The notes under the pieces: generated by a model
Told to the model about the DNA's origin: nothing
Database searches by the model: none
The model's input: only the letters and a program-made list of their open reading frames with translations
Shown: positions 15,629-52,038 of the stretch, one piece after another
Position numbering within the stretch: the first letter of the stretch is position 1
How the letters are laid out: each line of letters starts with the position of its first letter
Origin: a virus
Lineage: Duplodnaviria; Heunggongvirae; Uroviricota; Caudoviricetes
Strand: one strand, 5' to 3'
DNA: 64,000 bases
IMG/VR virus record: IMGVR_UViG_3300043080_000590
Span: 258,386 to 322,385 of that record
Translations under genes and position numbers: made by a program

Positions 15629-18136
15629 TTACTTTTTTAATAATCTCATATCAAACTTTTTAATTTCCCAAGCTTCTTCTGTTCTATATAATTTTTCTCT
15701 TGTTCTGGCGTGTCTACGAAGCATAGGTGTATAATCTTGAAAATCAAACACAATAGCTCTTTTCTTTTCTTTACCTGTTTCAGGATTTTTATATAGTCTT
15801 AATACTCTACCCACTCTTTGAAAAGCTCTTGTGGAACTACGACCACCACCTGCTAATATCAAAATCTCTAAGTTAGGTATGTCAAGTCCTTCATCTGCTA
15901 TTGTACTACCTATTAAGATTTCTACAAAACCATCTCTTACACCTTGAATAACAGCCTTTCTTCTTACAGCATCATCCTTACCTGATAAAAATTCTACATT
16001 AGCAATTCTAACTAATTTATCTTTACCTGTCTTATCATCAGTTACTTGAACTGCTTTTTTTACTATTTCTATCTTTTTAGATAACATTTTTAATATTGTT
16101 TCTCCGTGTTCTACTTGTTGAATTAATATTAAGATAGGTGCGTGTTTTACTTCTCTCATTTTAACTGCTATACTAACAACAATTTGATTTCTTTCTATAT
16201 TATTAGCAATAGCTTCTTTATAAACTTTATTATAAGATTTACCTTGAAAAACTCTTTTGTAAGGAATAAAGTAAATAGTACAAGGCACTAAATATCCCCA
16301 TTCAATAAGTTTGCTTGCTGAAATATCATTTTCTTCTTTTCTTCTATCTAGTGCTGCTTCTAATAATAAATCAGCACCATCTTCTCTCCACGGAGTGGCT
16401 GATACACCAATTCTATAATAAGCATTTTTAGCCCATTTAGATATTTCTACAAATGTATTAGAACCTATATGATGACATTCATCAAATAAAATCATATTAG
16501 AATCTTTAATATCTTCTTCTGTTGTTGATTGAGCAGAATAAACAGTTATATCTCTTTTCTTGTTTATGCCACCACCAACAATACCTACTTCTTCCCCTAA
16601 AAACTTTCCAATTTCATCTTTTAGCTGTGTACATAAAGTTAATTTATCAGCAAAAATTGAAACAGGTCTAACATTAAACTTATCAATTAATCCTGCCATT
16701 ATAAATGTATTATGCGTTACTATAAAATCTTTACAAATAAATGTATGTAATGGACTATCTACTGCTATACACTTCATTTCAGACTTTGTAGGTAATGGAG
16801 TTATTGAAACAATTTTTAAAGCATTATAATGATGATTTTTGCCTATTCTTCTATTCTTAAATCTTTCAGTATGTTTTTTTGATGTAAATAATTTATCATC
16901 ACAGCCACGAACATGAATATACCACGTTTTGTTTCTATATCTATCACTATTAATTGTTCTTTTATCTAATACAATTTTCGCTCTATATCCAAGACTATTT
17001 AATAAAAATTGTACATCTTCTACTAATCGTTTGCTAACGGAACAATAAGTAATATGTCCTTTACTATTTACAGTACCATCTGTATCAAATAGTCCTTGTA
17101 AAAGTGCTATTCTGTCATTAACATCAGAAAATTTATATTCTTCGGGAATAAATTTATCTTCGCTTTTAATTCTTCCAAAAACCTTATGTATATAATCTCT
17201 TAAATTATCTTTTTTTCCACCGCAACCATATGTGTATTGAATCCTGTCTTTATGTCCATTTTTAAATTCTCCACCAAATTGTCTTGCTAAATCTTTTACT
17301 TTATTAATTACATCTTCCTCTGTATTTGTAAAAGTAATTTGTCTTTGAGAAAAGCCACCATCGCCTAATAATGCTCCCAATAAATATGGCGGTAAAAATA
17401 AATCTTTTTTCTCAAACTGAATTGGCTTACATACGGGAATGCTTAGAACTAAATTTCTTCCTGTTTTGATTTTATGATTGTTTAATATTTCTTCAACAGT
17501 TTTTACTTGCCATTTATTTTTTGAAAGATTGTCTCTTGTTGCAAATTTCCATAAATGATTTTTACAACATTTAATAGTTGTACCATCGTTAAATACTATT
17601 TCATATTCTTGTTGCTCACCTTGTGGATATTCTCCGATAACAGTTGTTTTATCTCCATTTTCATCAAAAACAATACTTCCTACGTGAATATCTTTTAATG
17701 GAACAAAACCATCAGGGGTTAGAATTGGCGTATCTAAGGGAATCGACTTGCCGCCGCCCGTACTGACCCTTACTATTTCCCTGTTTGAGGCGTTATCAAT
17801 TATTTTTTGTTGATAATCTCTCGCTTTTAACTCTACTTTTGAACCATCAGGTAAAGTCAAATATTCTTGTAATGCAAAATTAGCATTTTGTTCGGGTACT
17901 ACTCTTGTATCTGTTATTTTATATCCAATATTATTTTCTTCTAATATTTCATATACATAATTTAATAAACCAGTATAGGTCTTTTTTGTTTTTCTATTGT
18001 ACAAATGTCTTATTTGAATATATTCACAACCAAATTCTTTTACTTCAAAACTTAATTTTTCCCATATCTTTAATTCAATATCTTTTGAAAAACCAATCAA
18101 CTTTGAATATACATTATCAATTATAATTTCTGCCAT
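15629..18136 (-). CDS. SF2 (DExH) DNA/RNA helicase precursor containing an intein
   Basis: Walker A STGGGK|...|T is split by the intein. Motif II is DECHH and motif VI is QRVGRVLR. The extein is about 489 aa. Confidence 0.8.
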   Translation of the reverse strand: MAEIIIDNVYSKLIGFSKDIELKIWEKLSFEVKEFGCEYIQIRHLYNRKTKKTYTGLLNYVYEILEENNIGYKITDTRVVPEQNANFALQEYLTLPDGSKVELKARDYQQKIIDNASNREIVRVSTGGGKSIPLDTPILTPDGFVPLKDIHVGSIVFDENGDKTTVIGEYPQGEQQEYEIVFNDGTTIKCCKNHLWKFATRDNLSKNKWQVKTVEEILNNHKIKTGRNLVLSIPVCKPIQFEKKDLFLPPYLLGALLGDGGFSQRQITFTNTEEDVINKVKDLARQFGGEFKNGHKDRIQYTYGCGGKKDNLRDYIHKVFGRIKSEDKFIPEEYKFSDVNDRIALLQGLFDTDGTVNSKGHITYCSVSKRLVEDVQFLLNSLGYRAKIVLDKRTINSDRYRNKTWYIHVRGCDDKLFTSKKHTERFKNRRIGKNHHYNALKIVSITPLPTKSEMKCIAVDSPLHTFICKDFIVTHNTFIMAGLIDKFNVRPVSIFADKLTLCTQLKDEIGKFLGEEVGIVGGGINKKRDITVYSAQSTTEEDIKDSNMILFDECHHIGSNTFVEISKWAKNAYYRIGVSATPWREDGADLLLEAALDRRKEENDISASKLIEWGYLVPCTIYFIPYKRVFQGKSYNKVYKEAIANNIERNQIVVSIAVKMREVKHAPILILIQQVEHGETILKMLSKKIEIVKKAVQVTDDKTGKDKLVRIANVEFLSGKDDAVRRKAVIQGVRDGFVEILIGSTIADEGLDIPNLEILILAGGGRSSTRAFQRVGRVLRLYKNPETGKEKKRAIVFDFQDYTPMLRRHARTREKLYRTEEAWEIKKFDMRLLKK
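16709..17746 (-). other. Intein (346 aa) with LAGLIDADG homing endonuclease domain inside the helicase P-loop
   Basis: It begins with Ser (SIPLDTPILT...) directly after GGGK. It ends ...FIVTHN and is followed by Thr+1, which restores GKT. The two LAGLIDADG motifs are LLGALLGDGG and LLQGLFDTDGTV. Confidence 0.7.
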
Positions 18137-19069: not shown

Positions 19070-19972
19070 TTGTATATGATAAATATAACAAAATGCACAA
19101 GTACAGCTAATACAACAGTTAAAAGTAATAGAAGTATTAAGTATATTGTTATTCATTACACAGCTGGCACAAGAAGTACTGCTGGTTCTGCTAAAGCAAT
19201 TGCTCAATATTTTGGCAGAAGTTCAACAGGTGCATCAGCAGATTTTATTGTAGATGATGCTACTATTGTTCAGTTTAATCCTGACCCCAAAAATCGTTAT
19301 TGCTGGTCAGTAGGTGGTAGCAAATATTCAAATCCTGCCACTTCCGTGGGTGCTACTTATTATAACAAGTGTACTAATTCTAACAGTATCAGTATTGAGA
19401 TGTGTAGTAGTAAAACTAATACATCAAGTTTACTTGCCAGTGACACGGACTGGTATATTACAGATGCTACAACAAATAATGCAGTAGAATTGACAAAGTA
19501 TTTGATGAACCTTTATAATATTCCTGCAAGCAATGTTATAATGCACCACCACGTTACAGGCAAGATTTGTCCTAATCCTTGGTGTGTGAATGAGAGCAGA
19601 CTTAGCAAGTGGAATGCTTTCAAAGCAAAATTAACAGGTACTACTGTTGAAAAAGAAGAAGTAAAAGAAACTAAGAAATTTATTTTTGTTAAAGCAAATA
19701 TTTTAGGCAAGAGCTGTGAAATTACAGGCTTTAATGAAAATGATGAAAATTGGGTAAAAATTACTTCTATTTTAGAAGCTTTAGGCTACACAACAAAGTG
19801 GAATAATACAAAAAAGAGAGCTATTGCTGTTAAAGACGGTAAAGAAACTTTTTTGGATATTAGAACATATATATCTGTTGATAGTATTTCTTTTGCTCCT
19901 CTTAGGGAGTTGTGTGAATTCTTGGGATTCACAGTAACTTGGAGTAAAGAAGACGGCATAATTGTAAAATAA
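19070..19972 (+). CDS. N-acetylmuramoyl-L-alanine amidase (endolysin) with C-terminal cell-wall-binding region
   Basis: Amidase_2/PGRP signatures are present: IVIHYTAG, ISIEMC and MHHHVTGKICPNP. RBS GAGGTG. Confidence 0.8.
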   Translation: MYMINITKCTSTANTTVKSNRSIKYIVIHYTAGTRSTAGSAKAIAQYFGRSSTGASADFIVDDATIVQFNPDPKNRYCWSVGGSKYSNPATSVGATYYNKCTNSNSISIEMCSSKTNTSSLLASDTDWYITDATTNNAVELTKYLMNLYNIPASNVIMHHHVTGKICPNPWCVNESRLSKWNAFKAKLTGTTVEKEEVKETKKFIFVKANILGKSCEITGFNENDENWVKITSILEALGYTTKWNNTKKRAIAVKDGKETFLDIRTYISVDSISFAPLRELCEFLGFTVTWSKEDGIIVK

Positions 19973-20003
19973 AATATACTAATTACTTCGATTGAAAAAA
20001 AGA

Positions 20004-20036
20004 AAAGGACTACATTTGTTTGTAGTCCTTTTTTAT
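20004..20036 (+). terminator. Rho-independent terminator after endolysin
   Basis: Hairpin aaaggactaca / tgtagtcctt followed by TTTTT. Confidence 0.7.
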
Positions 20037-20060
20037 ATATATGTAAAGTTTTTAATTTTT

Positions 20061-20653
20061 GATGATTTTTAAAATTATTAGTATTAATACGAAATTATAA
20101 TTGATAATGTATATTCAAAGTTAATATTTACTTTCCAGTATATTAGTATTAATACTTTATTTTTTAATAATTCAAAAACAGGTTGGGGCATATTTACTTT
20201 CCAGTATATTAGTATTAATACAATGCAGTGTTAGACGTTGCGACGGCTAAAGTCAAATTTACTTTCCAGTATATTAGTATTAATACTCAGTTACGTTGAA
20301 GCAAGGCAATAAGTCTTTTAATTTACTTTCCAGTATATTAGTATTAATACATTTTATATTAACCTCACTTGCAACAAGCCAATATAATTTACTTTCCAGT
20401 ATATTAGTATTAATACTAAATTCACCTCTTGTTACTCCTCATCATTAGTATCATTTACTTTCCAGTATATTAGTATTAATACGAAGAAATAATGTAACTT
20501 ACGATAAATCTACTTTATTTACTTTCCAGTATATTAGTATTAATACTTTTCAACTGGTGTAAATGCAATATTCACAGCATATTTACTTTCCAGTATATTA
20601 GTATTAATACCCGTTCAGTGTACAGTAGTACATTTTATTAGTATTTGAAATAC
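20061..20653. CRISPR. CRISPR array: 8 identical 30-nt repeats (ATTTACTTTCCAGTATATTAGTATTAATAC) plus degenerate repeats at both ends; about 9 spacers of 34-36 nt
   Basis: Perfect repeats start at 20126, 20192, 20257, 20321, 20387, 20453, 20517 and 20581, with a regular 64-66 nt period and unique spacers. The reverse complement GTATTAATACTAATATACTGGAAAGTAAAT ends in GTAAAT like clostridial type I-B repeats, so minus-strand transcription is possible. No cas genes are present in the window. Confidence 0.85.
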
Positions 20654-20850
20654 TAAATCTGTCGAACCCATTGAAAAGTTAATTCCAAATATTATTTTTT
20701 ATTCATTATTTACTTTATTCTCACAAAAACATAAGTAAATAAAGTGTTTTCAAACTTTCTGTCTATCTCTTAGTAATTTTACATTATTATACATCGACAG
20801 AATTAAAAAACTAAAAAAATAAAAAGTATTTATACTATAATATTGAATTT

Positions 20851-20985
20851 GGTGAGTGGTGGGCTTCTTAGGTCAAAGCGGTGCAAGTCTTAAAGTTCTA
20901 TCGCAAGTATTGAACGATATGTGAAGTGAACTACCCTCACCTTTCGGACGGTAAATCGCCCGAAGTCACCAACTAAGGGTGCTTA
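20851..20985. ncRNA. GC-rich island (about 50% GC in a 27% GC background) with nested helices; candidate structured non-coding RNA of unknown class
   Basis: GGTGAG-t-GG at 20851-20859 pairs with CC-CTCACC at 20933-20940. There is an internal hairpin ttcgg-acgg-taaat-cgcc-cgaa. A TATAAT-like box lies at 20836-20841 just upstream. No ORF is present. Confidence 0.3.
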
Positions 20986-21181
20986 TAAAAAATAGTTTTA
21001 AAAACTTTACAATATTATAATATAATATTTTCCTTAATTTGTCAAGTGTTTTTTGTAAAAAATTGTATTGTTAAAACGTCTCAGAATCAATTTTAAGACC
21101 TATAACGATTTATTGTGAATAAATATTAAGTAAACTATTTATACCCTCTTAAAATTGATTTTAAAACTATTTAAACAATAA

Positions 21182-21215
21182 AAACGTTGAGTAGAGTTAC
21201 CCAACGTTTTTTTTA
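21182..21215. terminator. Bidirectional rho-independent terminator
   Basis: Hairpin aacgttg...caacgtt is flanked by A-runs and T-runs on both strands. It sits at the 3' end of the minus-strand gene 21213-21545. Confidence 0.6.
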
Positions 21216-21545
21216 TTGTTGAACTTCATTATCTGTTTCTTCTGCAATTTCTCCCATTTCAGCTTTAACTGCTTCTTTATATTTATTAAAAAACATAGTA
21301 CAATAACTACCAAAGTTTGAAAAATCCGTGCCCATGCTACAATTCGGATTGAAAGGATTGTTAGAATCATTTCCTGGAAAGCAACTATCTGAAATTGTAA
21401 CATTGTTTTCATTTTCAAAACTTTTAATTGCAGTAGAAAAGTTATTCATTACTCTTATTAACTCATTTCTACATAAATCAAATTGACCTTCTAATTCTTG
21501 TGTATTAATCGCAGAAGTTTTCATCAATCTTTTCATTTTTAACAA
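21213..21545 (-). CDS. Hypothetical protein (110 aa)
   Basis: ORF in an intergenic island. It overlaps the spurious ORF 21197-21418 in the other frame. Confidence 0.4.
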   Translation of the reverse strand: MLKMKRLMKTSAINTQELEGQFDLCRNELIRVMNNFSTAIKSFENENNVTISDSCFPGNDSNNPFNPNCSMGTDFSNFGSYCTMFFNKYKEAVKAEMGEIAEETDNEVQQ

Positions 21546-22143
21546 CCTCTCTATTGATTATTTTATAAATAAATATACTACCTAACGAATTTCCCAAAGT
21601 TACAAATAAAATAAATGATATAGAATAAATATTTATTTTATTTGCTAAAAATATATAAAACATATCAGCAACACAGTGTTCAGCACCAATTAAAATAAAT
21701 ACTGCTATACATAATATTACTGCTACTATTTTCATTATTGCTTCATTACTTTTTTTATATACTTCAACTGCAATAAATATTAAAATACCGCATAAAAATG
21801 AAAAAAATAAAATTTCAAAAATAGTATAATTTAATTTCAACTCAACTATTGTTTCTATATTAATGGCTTTTATTTTACAAGTATTTCTATAACACAATGC
21901 TGTAATAAAACATCCAAGCAGATTTCCTATCCATATAATTAATAATTCTAAGGAATTTTCATTCTCAGTAATATAACCAATTTTCCCTGTATACAAATCT
22001 AATTTAAAAAAAAGTATTGTTAGTAATCCTATGGAAAATAAAAAACTGCCGATAATTTTGTCAGTGGATAAGAATACGATACTTGCAATACTAATCATAA
22101 TTCCTGCTAGAAATGCAGATAAAAATAAATTAAGAAATTTCAA
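21505..22143 (-). CDS. Polytopic membrane protein (about 6 TM), possible superinfection-exclusion or abortive-infection type
   Basis: 212 aa that are strongly hydrophobic. It is divergent from the replication module. Confidence 0.45.
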   Translation of the reverse strand: MKFLNLFLSAFLAGIMISIASIVFLSTDKIIGSFLFSIGLLTILFFKLDLYTGKIGYITENENSLELLIIWIGNLLGCFITALCYRNTCKIKAINIETIVELKLNYTIFEILFFSFLCGILIFIAVEVYKKSNEAIMKIVAVILCIAVFILIGAEHCVADMFYIFLANKINIYSISFILFVTLGNSLGSIFIYKIINREVVKNEKIDENFCD

Positions 22144-49062: not shown

Positions 49063-50019
49063 TTGATTTTAGAAAATCAAACAGTTGTTATTCAATGGAC
49101 GGGGCGTAATAGAAAAGAATATGAGGAATTAGGATATATCTTTACTAAATTTGGAGACCCGTTAGAAATTAAAGTAGAACATTTACATAAAGGTTCTCAT
49201 GAAGAAGTTTGGTATGAATGTGATAATTGTCAAAAAAAAGATAAAAGAGAATATAGAAAACTTCTTAAACAAGATATACATTATTGTAAAAAATGTTGTA
49301 CAATTAGACGAGAAGAAACTTGTATGAAAAAATATGGAGTAAAAAATACATTTCAGAGTGAAGAAAAAAAGGAAAAAATGCGACAAACTTGGAATAGAAA
49401 ATATGGAGTAGATAGCCCTTTAAAAAATAAAGAAATACACGATAAAGTAGAAGCAACCTGTATGAAAAAATATGGGGTAAAAAATACTTTTCAAGTAAAA
49501 GAGTTTCAAGAAAAAGGTAGACAGACAATAATTGAACGCTATGGAGAAGATTATTATAAAGAAAAAGCACTTACAATGATAAGAGCTTTAAATAATAAAA
49601 ATAGCTCAACAAGAACTTCTAATAATCAAGCAAGTATTTGTAATTGGACAAATGGTACTTTAAATTATAGAGTAAATAAATATTCTTTAGATATTAGAGT
49701 AAATGATAATTTGTATATTGAATACGATGGTTCAGGACATACATTACCTGTTATTTTAAAACAAGTTTCTAAAAAAGTTTTTAAGAAAAAAGAATTATAC
49801 AGAAACAAATATATGGAAAACTTGGGATATAAACTTATAAGGGTTATTAATCGTCAAGATGTTGATTTAAATAAAGATGAATTTTTAAAGTTATATAATT
49901 TCTGTGTTGATTATCTTAAAAATACAAATTATAAATGGATAAAAATTTATTATGACAAACAAATTGTTATAAGTAATATTTTTAAAAAAACTTTTGAAGA
50001 GGTGATAAATAATGAGTAA
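49063..50019 (+). CDS. Putative free-standing homing-endonuclease-like protein: N-terminal triplicated KYGVxNTFQ modules plus C-terminal Vsr/DUF559-like (PD-(D/E)xK) nuclease domain
   Basis: Three repeats of C(M)KKYGVKNTFQ... are present. The C-terminal segment YIEYDGSGH...ENLGYKLIRV resembles the DUF559/Vsr fold. It abuts the gyrB start, and the stop and start overlap. Confidence 0.45.
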   Translation: MILENQTVVIQWTGRNRKEYEELGYIFTKFGDPLEIKVEHLHKGSHEEVWYECDNCQKKDKREYRKLLKQDIHYCKKCCTIRREETCMKKYGVKNTFQSEEKKEKMRQTWNRKYGVDSPLKNKEIHDKVEATCMKKYGVKNTFQVKEFQEKGRQTIIERYGEDYYKEKALTMIRALNNKNSSTRTSNNQASICNWTNGTLNYRVNKYSLDIRVNDNLYIEYDGSGHTLPVILKQVSKKVFKKKELYRNKYMENLGYKLIRVINRQDVDLNKDEFLKLYNFCVDYLKNTNYKWIKIYYDKQIVISNIFKKTFEEVINNE

Positions 50020-50329: not shown

Positions 50330-50661
50330 AAGGGAATGATTGCTTGAGTATAAAACCACTTTAATTGAATTTTATATAAATAAAAATAATATAAAATTGC
50401 TGGAAACCTCTAAGATTTAAATTACTACAACATAATCGGAAATGATAGGTGTGAAAGTTAAAAAAATTTAAAATACATGAGCAATCAGCAGCCAAAATTC
50501 TAAGTATGATTAAGTTATATATGAATAAGGTTCAACGACTATCGAAAACGTAAGAAATATTTTTACAAGTGAGTAGAGTACATATATGAAAATATATGGA
50601 AACGAGTGGCACATTTTTTATGTGAAGATATAGTCTAATTTATATTGAAAAATATAAGTTG
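50330..50661 (+). ncRNA. Group I intron 1 (ORF-less, 332 nt)
   Basis: P1 forms between exon CUCAGGU and the IGS GCUUGAG at 50343-50349, with a U-G wobble at the splice site. Core elements are P aattgctggaaa (50393), Q aatcagcagcc (50481), R gttcaacgactatcg (50529) and S aagatatagtct (50624). The 3' terminal nucleotide is G, and the spliced product reads LHSG|GKLF. Confidence 0.8.
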
Positions 50662-51658
50662 GGTAAATTATTTGCTAATGGGGAATCAGGATATTTTAGT
50701 ACGATAGGCACGTATGGTCTGGGAGCAAAACTTACTAACGCTTTATCTGATGATTTTATCGCTAAAGTGAAAAGAAATGGTAGAATTTATCGGCAAACAT
50801 TTAAAAAAGGTAGACCTACCTCTGATGTTGAAATTATTGGTACTGTTGATTTAAATGATACAGGAACTAAAATTACGTTTCATCCTGACTCTACAATATT
50901 TAAAACGACAATTCAACCAAATGATAAAAAATTACAAAACAGACTTGATGAAATAACTTCTTTAAATACTAATTTAAAAGTTAATTATAAAAATGAATTG
51001 GCTAATGTAGATACAACATTTTATTATCCTAATGGTATCGCTGATTATATAAATAAGAAGTTGTTAAAAGATAAAAAACTTTTGTTCGAAGAACCAATTT
51101 ATTATTCAAGTGAATACGTGGATAATGATGAAACTATTAAAGTTGAATTTTCTTTAATGTATGTTGATGATGTGGAAAGTAATGAAATTATTAAAACATT
51201 TGCTAATAATGTATCAACAAAAGAACACGGTACACATTTAGTAGGTTTTAAAGAGGGTTACAAAGAAGCTATTAATCAATATTCAATAAGTAAAAAATGG
51301 ATAACCGAACCCATTGAGATTAAATATCTAATGGATAATATTTGTTTAATTGTATCTGTTAAGTTAAGAGAATGTGAGCTTGATGGACAAACAAAAAATA
51401 AATTAGGTAATTTAATAGCTAAAGATGGTGTTGCTAATGTTGTTAAAGAATACTTTAATAAATTAAGTAAAGAACAACAAGTAGTAATACAAACAATAGT
51501 TGAAAGAGCTAATAAAGTAAAAGAAGCAGAAGAAGCTGCAAGGAGAGCAAGAATAAACACAAGGACTGCTAATAAAATAAAGAAAATAGCATTACCTGGT
51601 AAACTTGCTGATTGTAGTAGCAATAAAGGATATAGTGAGTTATTCTTAGTTGAAGGAG
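50662..51658 (+). CDS. gyrB: DNA gyrase subunit B, exon 2 (…GKLFANGESGY…LADCSSNKGYSELFLVEG)
   Basis: GyrB ATPase-transducer and the start of TOPRIM. The ORF-track ORF is 50659-51666. The exact 3' boundary is uncertain by 1-2 nt. Confidence 0.75.
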
Positions 51659-52038
51659 TAGCCTAAGGCAGAAACTCCCTATTAAGTAGTAATATTTAAT
51701 AGAAAATTTCTTTAATTGCTGGAAGTTCCTAAAATTAATTATACCTTATAAAAGGTTGCGAAAGTAGAAAAAAATAATTAAATGATATATGGTGATAGTA
51801 AACCTAAGTATTATAAGAAATAATAATTTCTAACAATGGATAATCAGCAACAAAATATATAAATAAAAAATATATATGTTCAACGACTATGCTTTAAAAA
51901 GCAGTAGGATAAAAGTTTATCTGAAATGGGAAAATACTTAAATGTTTAAGTATATGATATAGTCTATGCACTAATGAAAGTTAGTGAAAAACTAAATGTT
52001 TTTATTATAGTTTAACAAACTATGGTTAATGTAATTAG
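51659..52038 (+). ncRNA. Group I intron 2 (ORF-less, about 380 nt), same subfamily as intron 1
   Basis: Core elements are P aattgctggaag (51711), Q aatcagcaac (51843), R gttcaacgactatgc (51879) and S atgatatagtcta (51954). The 3' end is G at 52038. The 5' junction is placed by protein homology (EG|DSAGG). Confidence 0.7.

Follow-up and report, generated by a model that had tools for sequence, protein, structure and literature searches.

The leaders of CRISPR arrays are seen as AT-rich DNA with a promoter and with signals for integration. To our knowledge, the only RNA-level signal known in them is boxA, a short linear word to which NusB/E binds. Cis-acting RNAs known for processive antitermination include put of phage HK022, which consists of two hairpins, and EAR of the Bacillales, and both function without an expression platform. 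The aptamers of the purine and TPP riboswitches are three-way junctions, and type I-B CRISPR systems are not known to use a tracrRNA. CRISPR arrays can need an antitermination signal, boxA, in their leaders (Stringer et al. 2020, PMC7665894). Type I-B CRISPR of C. difficile uses CCW as its PAM, and the arrays of this organism have leaders of 170-200 nt and sigma-A-type promoters (PMC4556805). Compact arrays that lack cas genes are found in huge phages, which may employ the Cas proteins of their hosts (PMC7162821).

The stretch of 64,000 nucleotides analyzed here (the window) contains genes for tape-measure and baseplate proteins, DnaB and SbcC and is of phage origin. What is new in it is a folded GC-rich domain located between a promoter and a CRISPR leader, which has no Rfam family. 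Like put and EAR, this element is clade-restricted, contains several hairpins, follows closely on a promoter and precedes a long transcript, being promoter-proximal, in cis and upstream of a U-rich tract in one predicted transcription unit; it differs from them in that it consists of a three-way junction and two hairpins and heads a CRISPR array. No put/EAR-like or Rfam similarity was detected in sequence or structure, and because of the missing Rfam match and the different fold the element would be at most an analogue of put and EAR and is not a member of either family. It resembles boxA in lying in the transcribed leader, where it would secure a full-length untranslated CRISPR transcript, whereas boxA is a short word and the element is a folded domain of ~135 nt. 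A boxA in the leader itself was considered and rejected, since no such word (E. coli GCTCTTTAACAA or Firmicute-like GTTCTTTGAAAAC) was found within 20611-21010 at three or fewer mismatches, and window-wide counts were at chance level.

The array is similar to the C. difficile type I-B arrays, including prophage-borne ones, in its 29-30-nt repeats ending in ...GTAAAT, ~35-nt spacers, CCW PAMs, sigma-A-type promoter and presence in phages that lack cas genes (PMC4556805). Its predicted transcribed leader is ~400 nt long, against 170-200 nt in C. difficile, because the GC-rich structured domain is placed between the promoter and the AT-rich leader. The features of the locus and the loci that contain the element are listed in Table 1.

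Table 1. Features of the CRISPR cassette and its predicted RNA, with window coordinates, and further loci containing the element
Feature	Position	Strand	Description
Sigma-70-type promoter	21017..21045	minus	TTGACA (21045-21040), 17-nt spacer, TATTAT (21022-21017); 11/12
Pa hairpin	20967..20981	minus	CACC(C) / GGUG, variable loop
Pb hairpin	20943..20964	minus	UUCGGGCG / CGUCCGAA, 8 bp, loop AUUUAC; the ttcgg...ccgaa hairpin
Three-way-junction core	20851..20941	minus	consensus fold and pair counts
P1	20933-20941 paired with 20851-20860	minus	closes the core; GGTGAG-GG / CC-CTCACC
P2	20894-20932	minus	8-nt bulge, 9-nt loop
J2/3	20880-20893	minus	UUUAAGACUUGCACC region; invariant 14-nt strand between P2 and P3
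P3	20863-20879	minus	invariant
U-rich tract	20805..20825	minus	UUUUUAUUUUUUUAGUUUUUU; 25 nt downstream of P1; identical in all variants
AT-rich CRISPR leader	20611..20850	minus	~240 nt; 86-94% identical among variants
CRISPR array	20126..20610	minus	8 identical 30-nt repeats, 7 spacers of 34-36 nt
Partial terminal repeat	20076-20090	minus	end of the CRISPR array
Terminator hairpin ending the unit	20003..20032	minus	terminator scan
Element loci			L001 (same contig as L085), L084, L086, L087 (first 32 model positions only)
Element loci			L058 (same contig as L072), L071
Element loci			L068 (same contig as L074), L075, L076 (cut at contig end), L077

The GC-rich island and its fold

The stretch 20851-20985 has a GC content of 47.4%, against a mean of 25.9% for the whole window (sd 5.2% among 135-nt stretches), and its flanks have 20.3% (20614-20850) and 17.4% (20986-21180). 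No other 135-nt stretch of the window is richer in GC, the fraction with an equal or higher value being 6e-5. The sequence-only reading had described it as a GC-rich, ORF-free block that is neither a tRNA, a tmRNA nor a member of a recognized class and that is situated between the CRISPR array and a terminator, and this description was borne out. No ORF of 30 aa or more was found on either strand in 20611-21196, each of the six frames of the element has stops, ARAGORN reported 0 tRNA or tmRNA genes in the whole window, and the terminator hairpin is at 21180-21211. No family in Rfam 15 was assigned to any of the three variants of the element (see below) at the gathering threshold or at E<=10, where only noise was obtained, e.g. 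rli117 at 14.9 bits and nrdJ at 19.9 bits.

The sole gathering-level Rfam match in the whole window was a group I intron (RF00028, 50356-50657, plus strand, 52.6 bits, E = 1.7e-10), which is away from the element and lies between the ORFs 49063-50019 and 50659-51666, an arrangement that suggests a split phage gene flanking the intron.

Exact-word scans and protein-anchored look-ups yielded homologues of the element in three variants, the window, L058 and L001 types. The consensus of these variants contains 33 pairs, and 99.2% of its cells are standard pairs, a value matched by 1 of 500 column shuffles; when the partners were slid by 1-3 columns, pairing dropped to 42-47%. Covariation was found in P2, where four double changes keep the pairing (GC/AU, UA/CG, UA/CG and CG/AU), while P1, P3 and J2/3 have no variation, and a G-U pair is found at the end of both P2 and P3. 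There are ~18 variable columns in the 116-nt core: eight make up the compensatory pairs, one disrupts a pair and the others are unpaired. Pb has no covariation, has an internal G-U at one of its eight pairs (an A-C if the plus strand is read), and contains one U-U mismatch in L058. In L001, an insertion of ~25 nt, itself a hairpin, is located exactly within the loop of Pa, and the closing pairs are retained.

Compared with shuffled sequences, the window sequence folds with z = -2.7 on the minus strand and z = -2.2 on the plus strand (-40.2 kcal/mol). For the L001 variant RNA, which adopts the consensus fold, z is -4.1, and the minimum-energy fold of L058 uses an alternative GGUG/CACC pairing. 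The evidence for the structure is thus good but thin: the covariation is based on three variants that are ~86-90% identical and all double changes are within P2, and P1, P3 and Pb are supported by invariance, thermodynamics and G-U asymmetry. The complementarity noticed in the sequence-only reading proved to be real as the closing helix P1, and the hairpin that it had placed inside the element is also real, except that it adjoins the domain closed by P1.

Sequence identity among the variants is 86-90% in the core and 86-94% in the adjacent AT-rich leader, and the core is therefore not better conserved than its neighborhood. The element is conserved as a structure and not as a sequence, and the signal is in the pattern of change and not in its amount. 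The similar conservation of core and leader would fit an island without an RNA function, be it a coding relic, a site acting at the DNA level or GC-rich sequence inserted neutrally that travels with the cassette, and there is a 17-mer in it (GCGGTGCAAGTCTTAAA, 20878-20894) that is identical to the codons of the triosephosphate isomerase GGASLK motif in dozens of unrelated genomes. This identity was judged to be a coincidence, and a coding relic was rejected because the isomerase similarity stops at the edges of the 17-mer and all six frames contain stops. The compensatory pairs among the variable columns, the insertion placed precisely in a hairpin loop and the retention of the fold in both apparent copies of one genome also speak against a non-functional island, which we consider very improbable. 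The GC island is a structured RNA of about 135-150 bases that matches no catalogued RNA family.

Strand, promoter and transcription unit

The best promoter-like site within 19900-21400 is the minus-strand TTGACA-17-TATTAT site, which is ~45 nt upstream of the element and directed leftward through it, with a predicted transcription start near 21010. The same hexamers and spacing were top-scoring in L001 and L071, whose flanks are independent of those in the window, in the case of L071 with an added TG; hexamers and 17-nt spacing are identical in the three variants, and the sequence of the spacer varies. The fold itself is asymmetric with respect to the strands. Pb, P2 and P3 contain one invariant G-U pair each, so that the consensus helices mirrored to the plus strand have three invariant A-C mismatches and a pairing of 90.2% as against 99.2%, and the change of Pa to CACU/GGUG in L058 converts a C-G pair to U-G on the minus strand and to a C-A mismatch on the plus strand.

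The sequence-only reading had proposed a non-coding RNA transcribed from the plus strand, with a TATAAT box at 20836-20841 as its promoter. The string does occur 10 nt upstream of the island, and the plus strand also folds well, as the energy given above indicates. However, the box has no -35 partner, was not reported by the promoter scan and is not conserved in L001, where its counterpart is CATATA/ATATAT, and no plus-strand terminator follows the element. Together with the mismatches in the helices, this makes a plus-strand RNA hardly credible. Since the G-U asymmetry, the conserved promoter, the unconserved plus-strand box and the orientation of the array all agree, the element is probably read on the minus strand, opposite to the earlier proposal.

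On the minus strand, the promoter is followed by the element (20851-20981), the U-rich tract and then ~0.8 kb of untranslated RNA up to the terminator. Upstream of the promoter this strand has a terminator-like site at 21211-21180, and downstream of the array it has another at 20032-20003; none was found between the element and the array. The sole hairpin before the U-tract has -0.6 kcal/mol and is no better than shuffled sequence (z = +0.45), and the terminator scan reported nothing at this site; the U-tract is therefore not regarded as an intrinsic terminator. Because no terminator separates the two, the element is more likely to be the 5' domain of a CRISPR precursor than a gene of its own. 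The simplest reading of the predicted sites is one RNA of ~1 kb with a ~30-nt 5' tail, the structured domain, the U-tract, the leader, the array and the terminator, and on this model we consider it fairly probable that a structured minus-strand RNA is co-transcribed with the array. Of the earlier suggestion of a novel non-coding RNA, the conserved, structured and non-coding nature without a known family thus holds, and a stand-alone gene is doubtful.

It is also conceivable that the same promoter gives rise to an independent small RNA of ~190 nt, which would act in trans on targets such as the host, competitor phages or Cas proteins. Its 3' end would be generated by termination or processing at the U-tract or by Cas6 cleavage at the first repeat, and the array would be expressed by readthrough or from a weak promoter in the leader. 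A compact fold followed by an invariant U-tract is consistent with such an RNA, as is a weak promoter-like TATAAT in the leader (20791-20786, in the window and in L058), the distance of which from the first repeat, ~175 nt, fits the 170-200-nt leaders of C. difficile (PMC4556805); viral CRISPR-like regulatory RNAs are also known (bioRxiv 10.1101/2024.10.29.618823). Against it, the U-tract lacks a terminator hairpin, and the TATAAT in the leader has no -35 element and is destroyed in L001 (GTGGTAAT).

A further point against such an RNA is that its complementarity to the repeat is not significant. The element resembles a tracrRNA in being a small structured RNA beside a CRISPR array, and part of P2 seemed to read as the inverse of the repeat; it differs in that it contains no anti-repeat and the array is type I-B-like. 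The best duplex between element and repeat has -10.2 kcal/mol, against a background of -9.4 +/- 2.4, and was matched by 157 of 500 shuffled repeats and by 32% of the other 147-nt stretches of the window, and a tracrRNA or anti-repeat was rejected because this energy is at background. A trans-acting small RNA is considered rather unlikely, and co-transcription of the element with the array is retained as the preferred reading.

Several further observations were made along the unit. A helix of 7 bp is possible on the minus strand between 21008-21014 and 20785-20791 (UAUUGUA / UAUAAUA) and would enclose the element and the U-tract; it keeps its pairing in L001 in spite of five substitutions (UGUCAUA / UGUGGUA), and most of its 5' strand is at or above the predicted transcription start. 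A weak direct repeat of 22 nt (20770-20791 and 20998-21019) overlaps the same region. It hints at an insertion of the element between the promoter and an ancestral leader of ~175 nt, a scenario that was not adopted, the repeat being weak in L001 and L058. Within the leader, a degenerate repeat-like stretch (~20631-20652) is located 17-18 nt from the first repeat, and an AU-rich hairpin at 20700-20745 has arms like the ...AAAGUAAAU end of the repeat and its complement. All variants retain both features.

The cassette, its carriers and its targets

The element was found in eleven further distinct contigs of related huge phages, in two of which it is truncated at the contig end. Complete copies scored 144-150 bits with the covariance model R1, the end-truncated L076 copy scored 137 bits, and no second copy was found in the window with this model, even when its filters were switched off. 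In every copy for which flanks are available, the order is promoter, element, AT-rich leader of ~240 nt, type I-B-like array and terminator.

Homology to three differently flanked loci stops at 21052-21062, just past the -35 element (16 nt). In L082 and L083, the two convergent genes that flank the L001 copy are directly adjacent and the cassette is absent, and in L075 an identical element is followed by a different array and a different repeat-proximal leader. The shared boundary, the loci without the cassette and the exchange of the array indicate a discrete cassette of ~1 kb (20000-21062 in the window, L001:10906-12045), which has been found with three right flanks and several left flanks. 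The unit of promoter, element, leader, array and terminator thus behaves, as judged from these comparisons, as a movable, self-contained cassette of ~1.05 kb.

Just to the right of the cassette in the window is a gene for a membrane protein of the formate/nitrite-transporter family (21505-22143, minus strand, Pfam E = 4e-25), and L068 contains a six-gene DNA methyltransferase cluster in its place. Beyond the right boundary of the cassette, but before the terminator at 21180-21211, there is an inverted repeat of 28 nt (21071-21098 / 21147-21174, 82% complementary), which is seen only with the right flank of this window.

The carriers appear to be a clade of huge phages related to phage G. The longest contig was 502,690 bp for each of the anchor proteins P0001 and P0121 (window-type) and P0241 (L001-type), both window-type and L001-type cassettes are present in JGI sample 3300043081, and Bacillus phage G encodes a homologue of P0241 with 53% identity. 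From the shared contig size, the shared sample and the phage G homologue, the sequence comparison assigns the carriers to a phage-G-like clade with paralogous copies, in which one genome of ~500 kb probably carries at least two copies of the cassette. The fold is kept in both apparent copies of one phage genome.

No homologue was detected by blastn in phage and plasmid collections. Exact 17- and 18-mer scans of one-genome-per-species contigs and of a metagenome set, which diverged copies would escape, also gave no homologue, the output of the 17-mer scan of the genome contigs being mostly tpiA genes and random matches and that of the metagenome scan random matches only. Exact-word scans of viral contigs gave nothing new beyond L001 and L058, amidase-anchored viral loci gave no new homologue, and no cassette was found at more distant homologues of the amidase, the methyltransferase and the L001 flank gene. 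Outside the small phage clade, exact-word scans, which are insensitive to diverged copies, thus detected no element-like match.

The crRNA repeat, read on the minus strand, is GUAUUAAUACUAAUAUACUGGAAAGUAAAU (GTATTAATACTAATATACTGGAAAGTAAAT), which we take to resemble Clostridial type I-B repeats. Two spacers of related cassettes match genes of sister huge phages that are located a few kb from the cassette, a gene for a 110-aa protein and a DUF7768 gene. A spacer of L075 (L075:4332-4365) matches an L071-type phage gene (L071:6898-6931) at 30 of 34 positions, with the PAM 5'-CCA, and a spacer of L071 (L071:5471-5493) matches a window-type phage gene (L074:7984-8006) at 21 of 23 positions, with the PAM 5'-CCT. 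The copy of the target in the carrier itself has more mismatches in both cases, with CTA in the case of L075 and with CCT retained in that of L071. CCA and CCT appear as PAMs only with a crRNA from the minus strand. The 30-nt repeat, its ...GTAAAT 3' end, the spacers of ~35 nt and a 5'-CCN PAM were all found as in type I-B systems, and the array is accordingly classified as type I-B-like from its repeat and PAM.

No cas genes were present among the nine ORFs neighboring the array, which cover ~7 kb to its left and 4 kb to its right. Five of them encode a helicase with a LAGLIDADG intein, a MerR-like protein, an amidase endolysin, the formate/nitrite-transporter-like membrane protein and a replication protein, and the remaining four had no family match. 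The helicase is an 835-aa ResIII/Helicase_C protein (15629-18136, minus strand), in which a LAGLIDADG homing-endonuclease domain at residues ~336-428 is probably an intein. The targeting of sister phages by the spacers looks like an arms race of phage against phage that is carried out by type I-B Cas proteins of the host.

Possible roles of the RNA domain

The best explanation of the GC island, which we give an even chance of being correct, is that it is the folded 5' domain of a minus-strand CRISPR precursor transcript within a self-contained cassette. That this phage-specific RNA domain controls the virus-borne array in cis, by making the RNA polymerase of the host resistant to termination or by sensing a cellular signal, is a tentative proposal.

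Control of elongation, or readthrough, by antitermination is our preferred mechanism, favored because the RNA is promoter-proximal, clade-restricted and multi-helix and precedes a U-tract and a long untranslated transcript; by this analysis it is a possibility, with a probability well short of even. The element would act in cis on the expression of the array, its nascent fold making RNA polymerase resistant to pausing and termination in the manner of HK022 put or EAR RNA. This resistance would last through the invariant U-rich tract and the untranslated, AT-rich ~0.9 kb that the leader and the array make up, and full-length pre-crRNA would then reach Cas6 and Cascade of the host. A stabilizer that blocks 5' exonucleases was considered unlikely, because ~30 unpaired nucleotides would precede the first hairpin.

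Alternatively, the three-way junction might bind a metabolite or a signaling nucleotide and gate transcription of the array as a riboswitch-like sensor. Like the purine and TPP aptamers, the element is a junction with conserved unpaired strands in a 5' leader, and a sensor would be compatible with the several helices of the junction, its invariant 14-nt strand, the 8-nt bulge and the location close to the promoter, as well as with the alternative GGUG/CACC pairings, one of which appears in the minimum-energy fold of L058. The invariance of the strand, however, says little with just three close variants, and the element differs from the purine and TPP aptamers in that no expression platform, Rfam match or known ligand accompanies it and its distribution, in a single phage clade, is very narrow. 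Neither a competing terminator nor a ribosome-binding site was found, and there is no terminator-like site from the element to the array and no downstream ORF that a transcriptional riboswitch could act on. A classical riboswitch is therefore unlikely, because of the lack of an expression platform and the narrow distribution, and a sensor of any kind is given a low probability. Among the proposed roles, control of elongation by antitermination is thus ranked first, followed by a trans-acting RNA and then by a sensor.

In conclusion, a folded, covarying domain of ~135 nt in front of the pre-crRNA would add a regulatory layer to CRISPR expression, in a setting in which a virus appears to borrow the Cas machinery of its host against sibling phages, its spacers targeting genes of related huge phages. 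As the cassette is ~1 kb in size and self-contained, this idea can be tested directly with reporter constructs. If it is true, the element would be the first structured RNA known to regulate a CRISPR array, and a huge phage could time and tune the deployment of host Cas proteins against its competitors.
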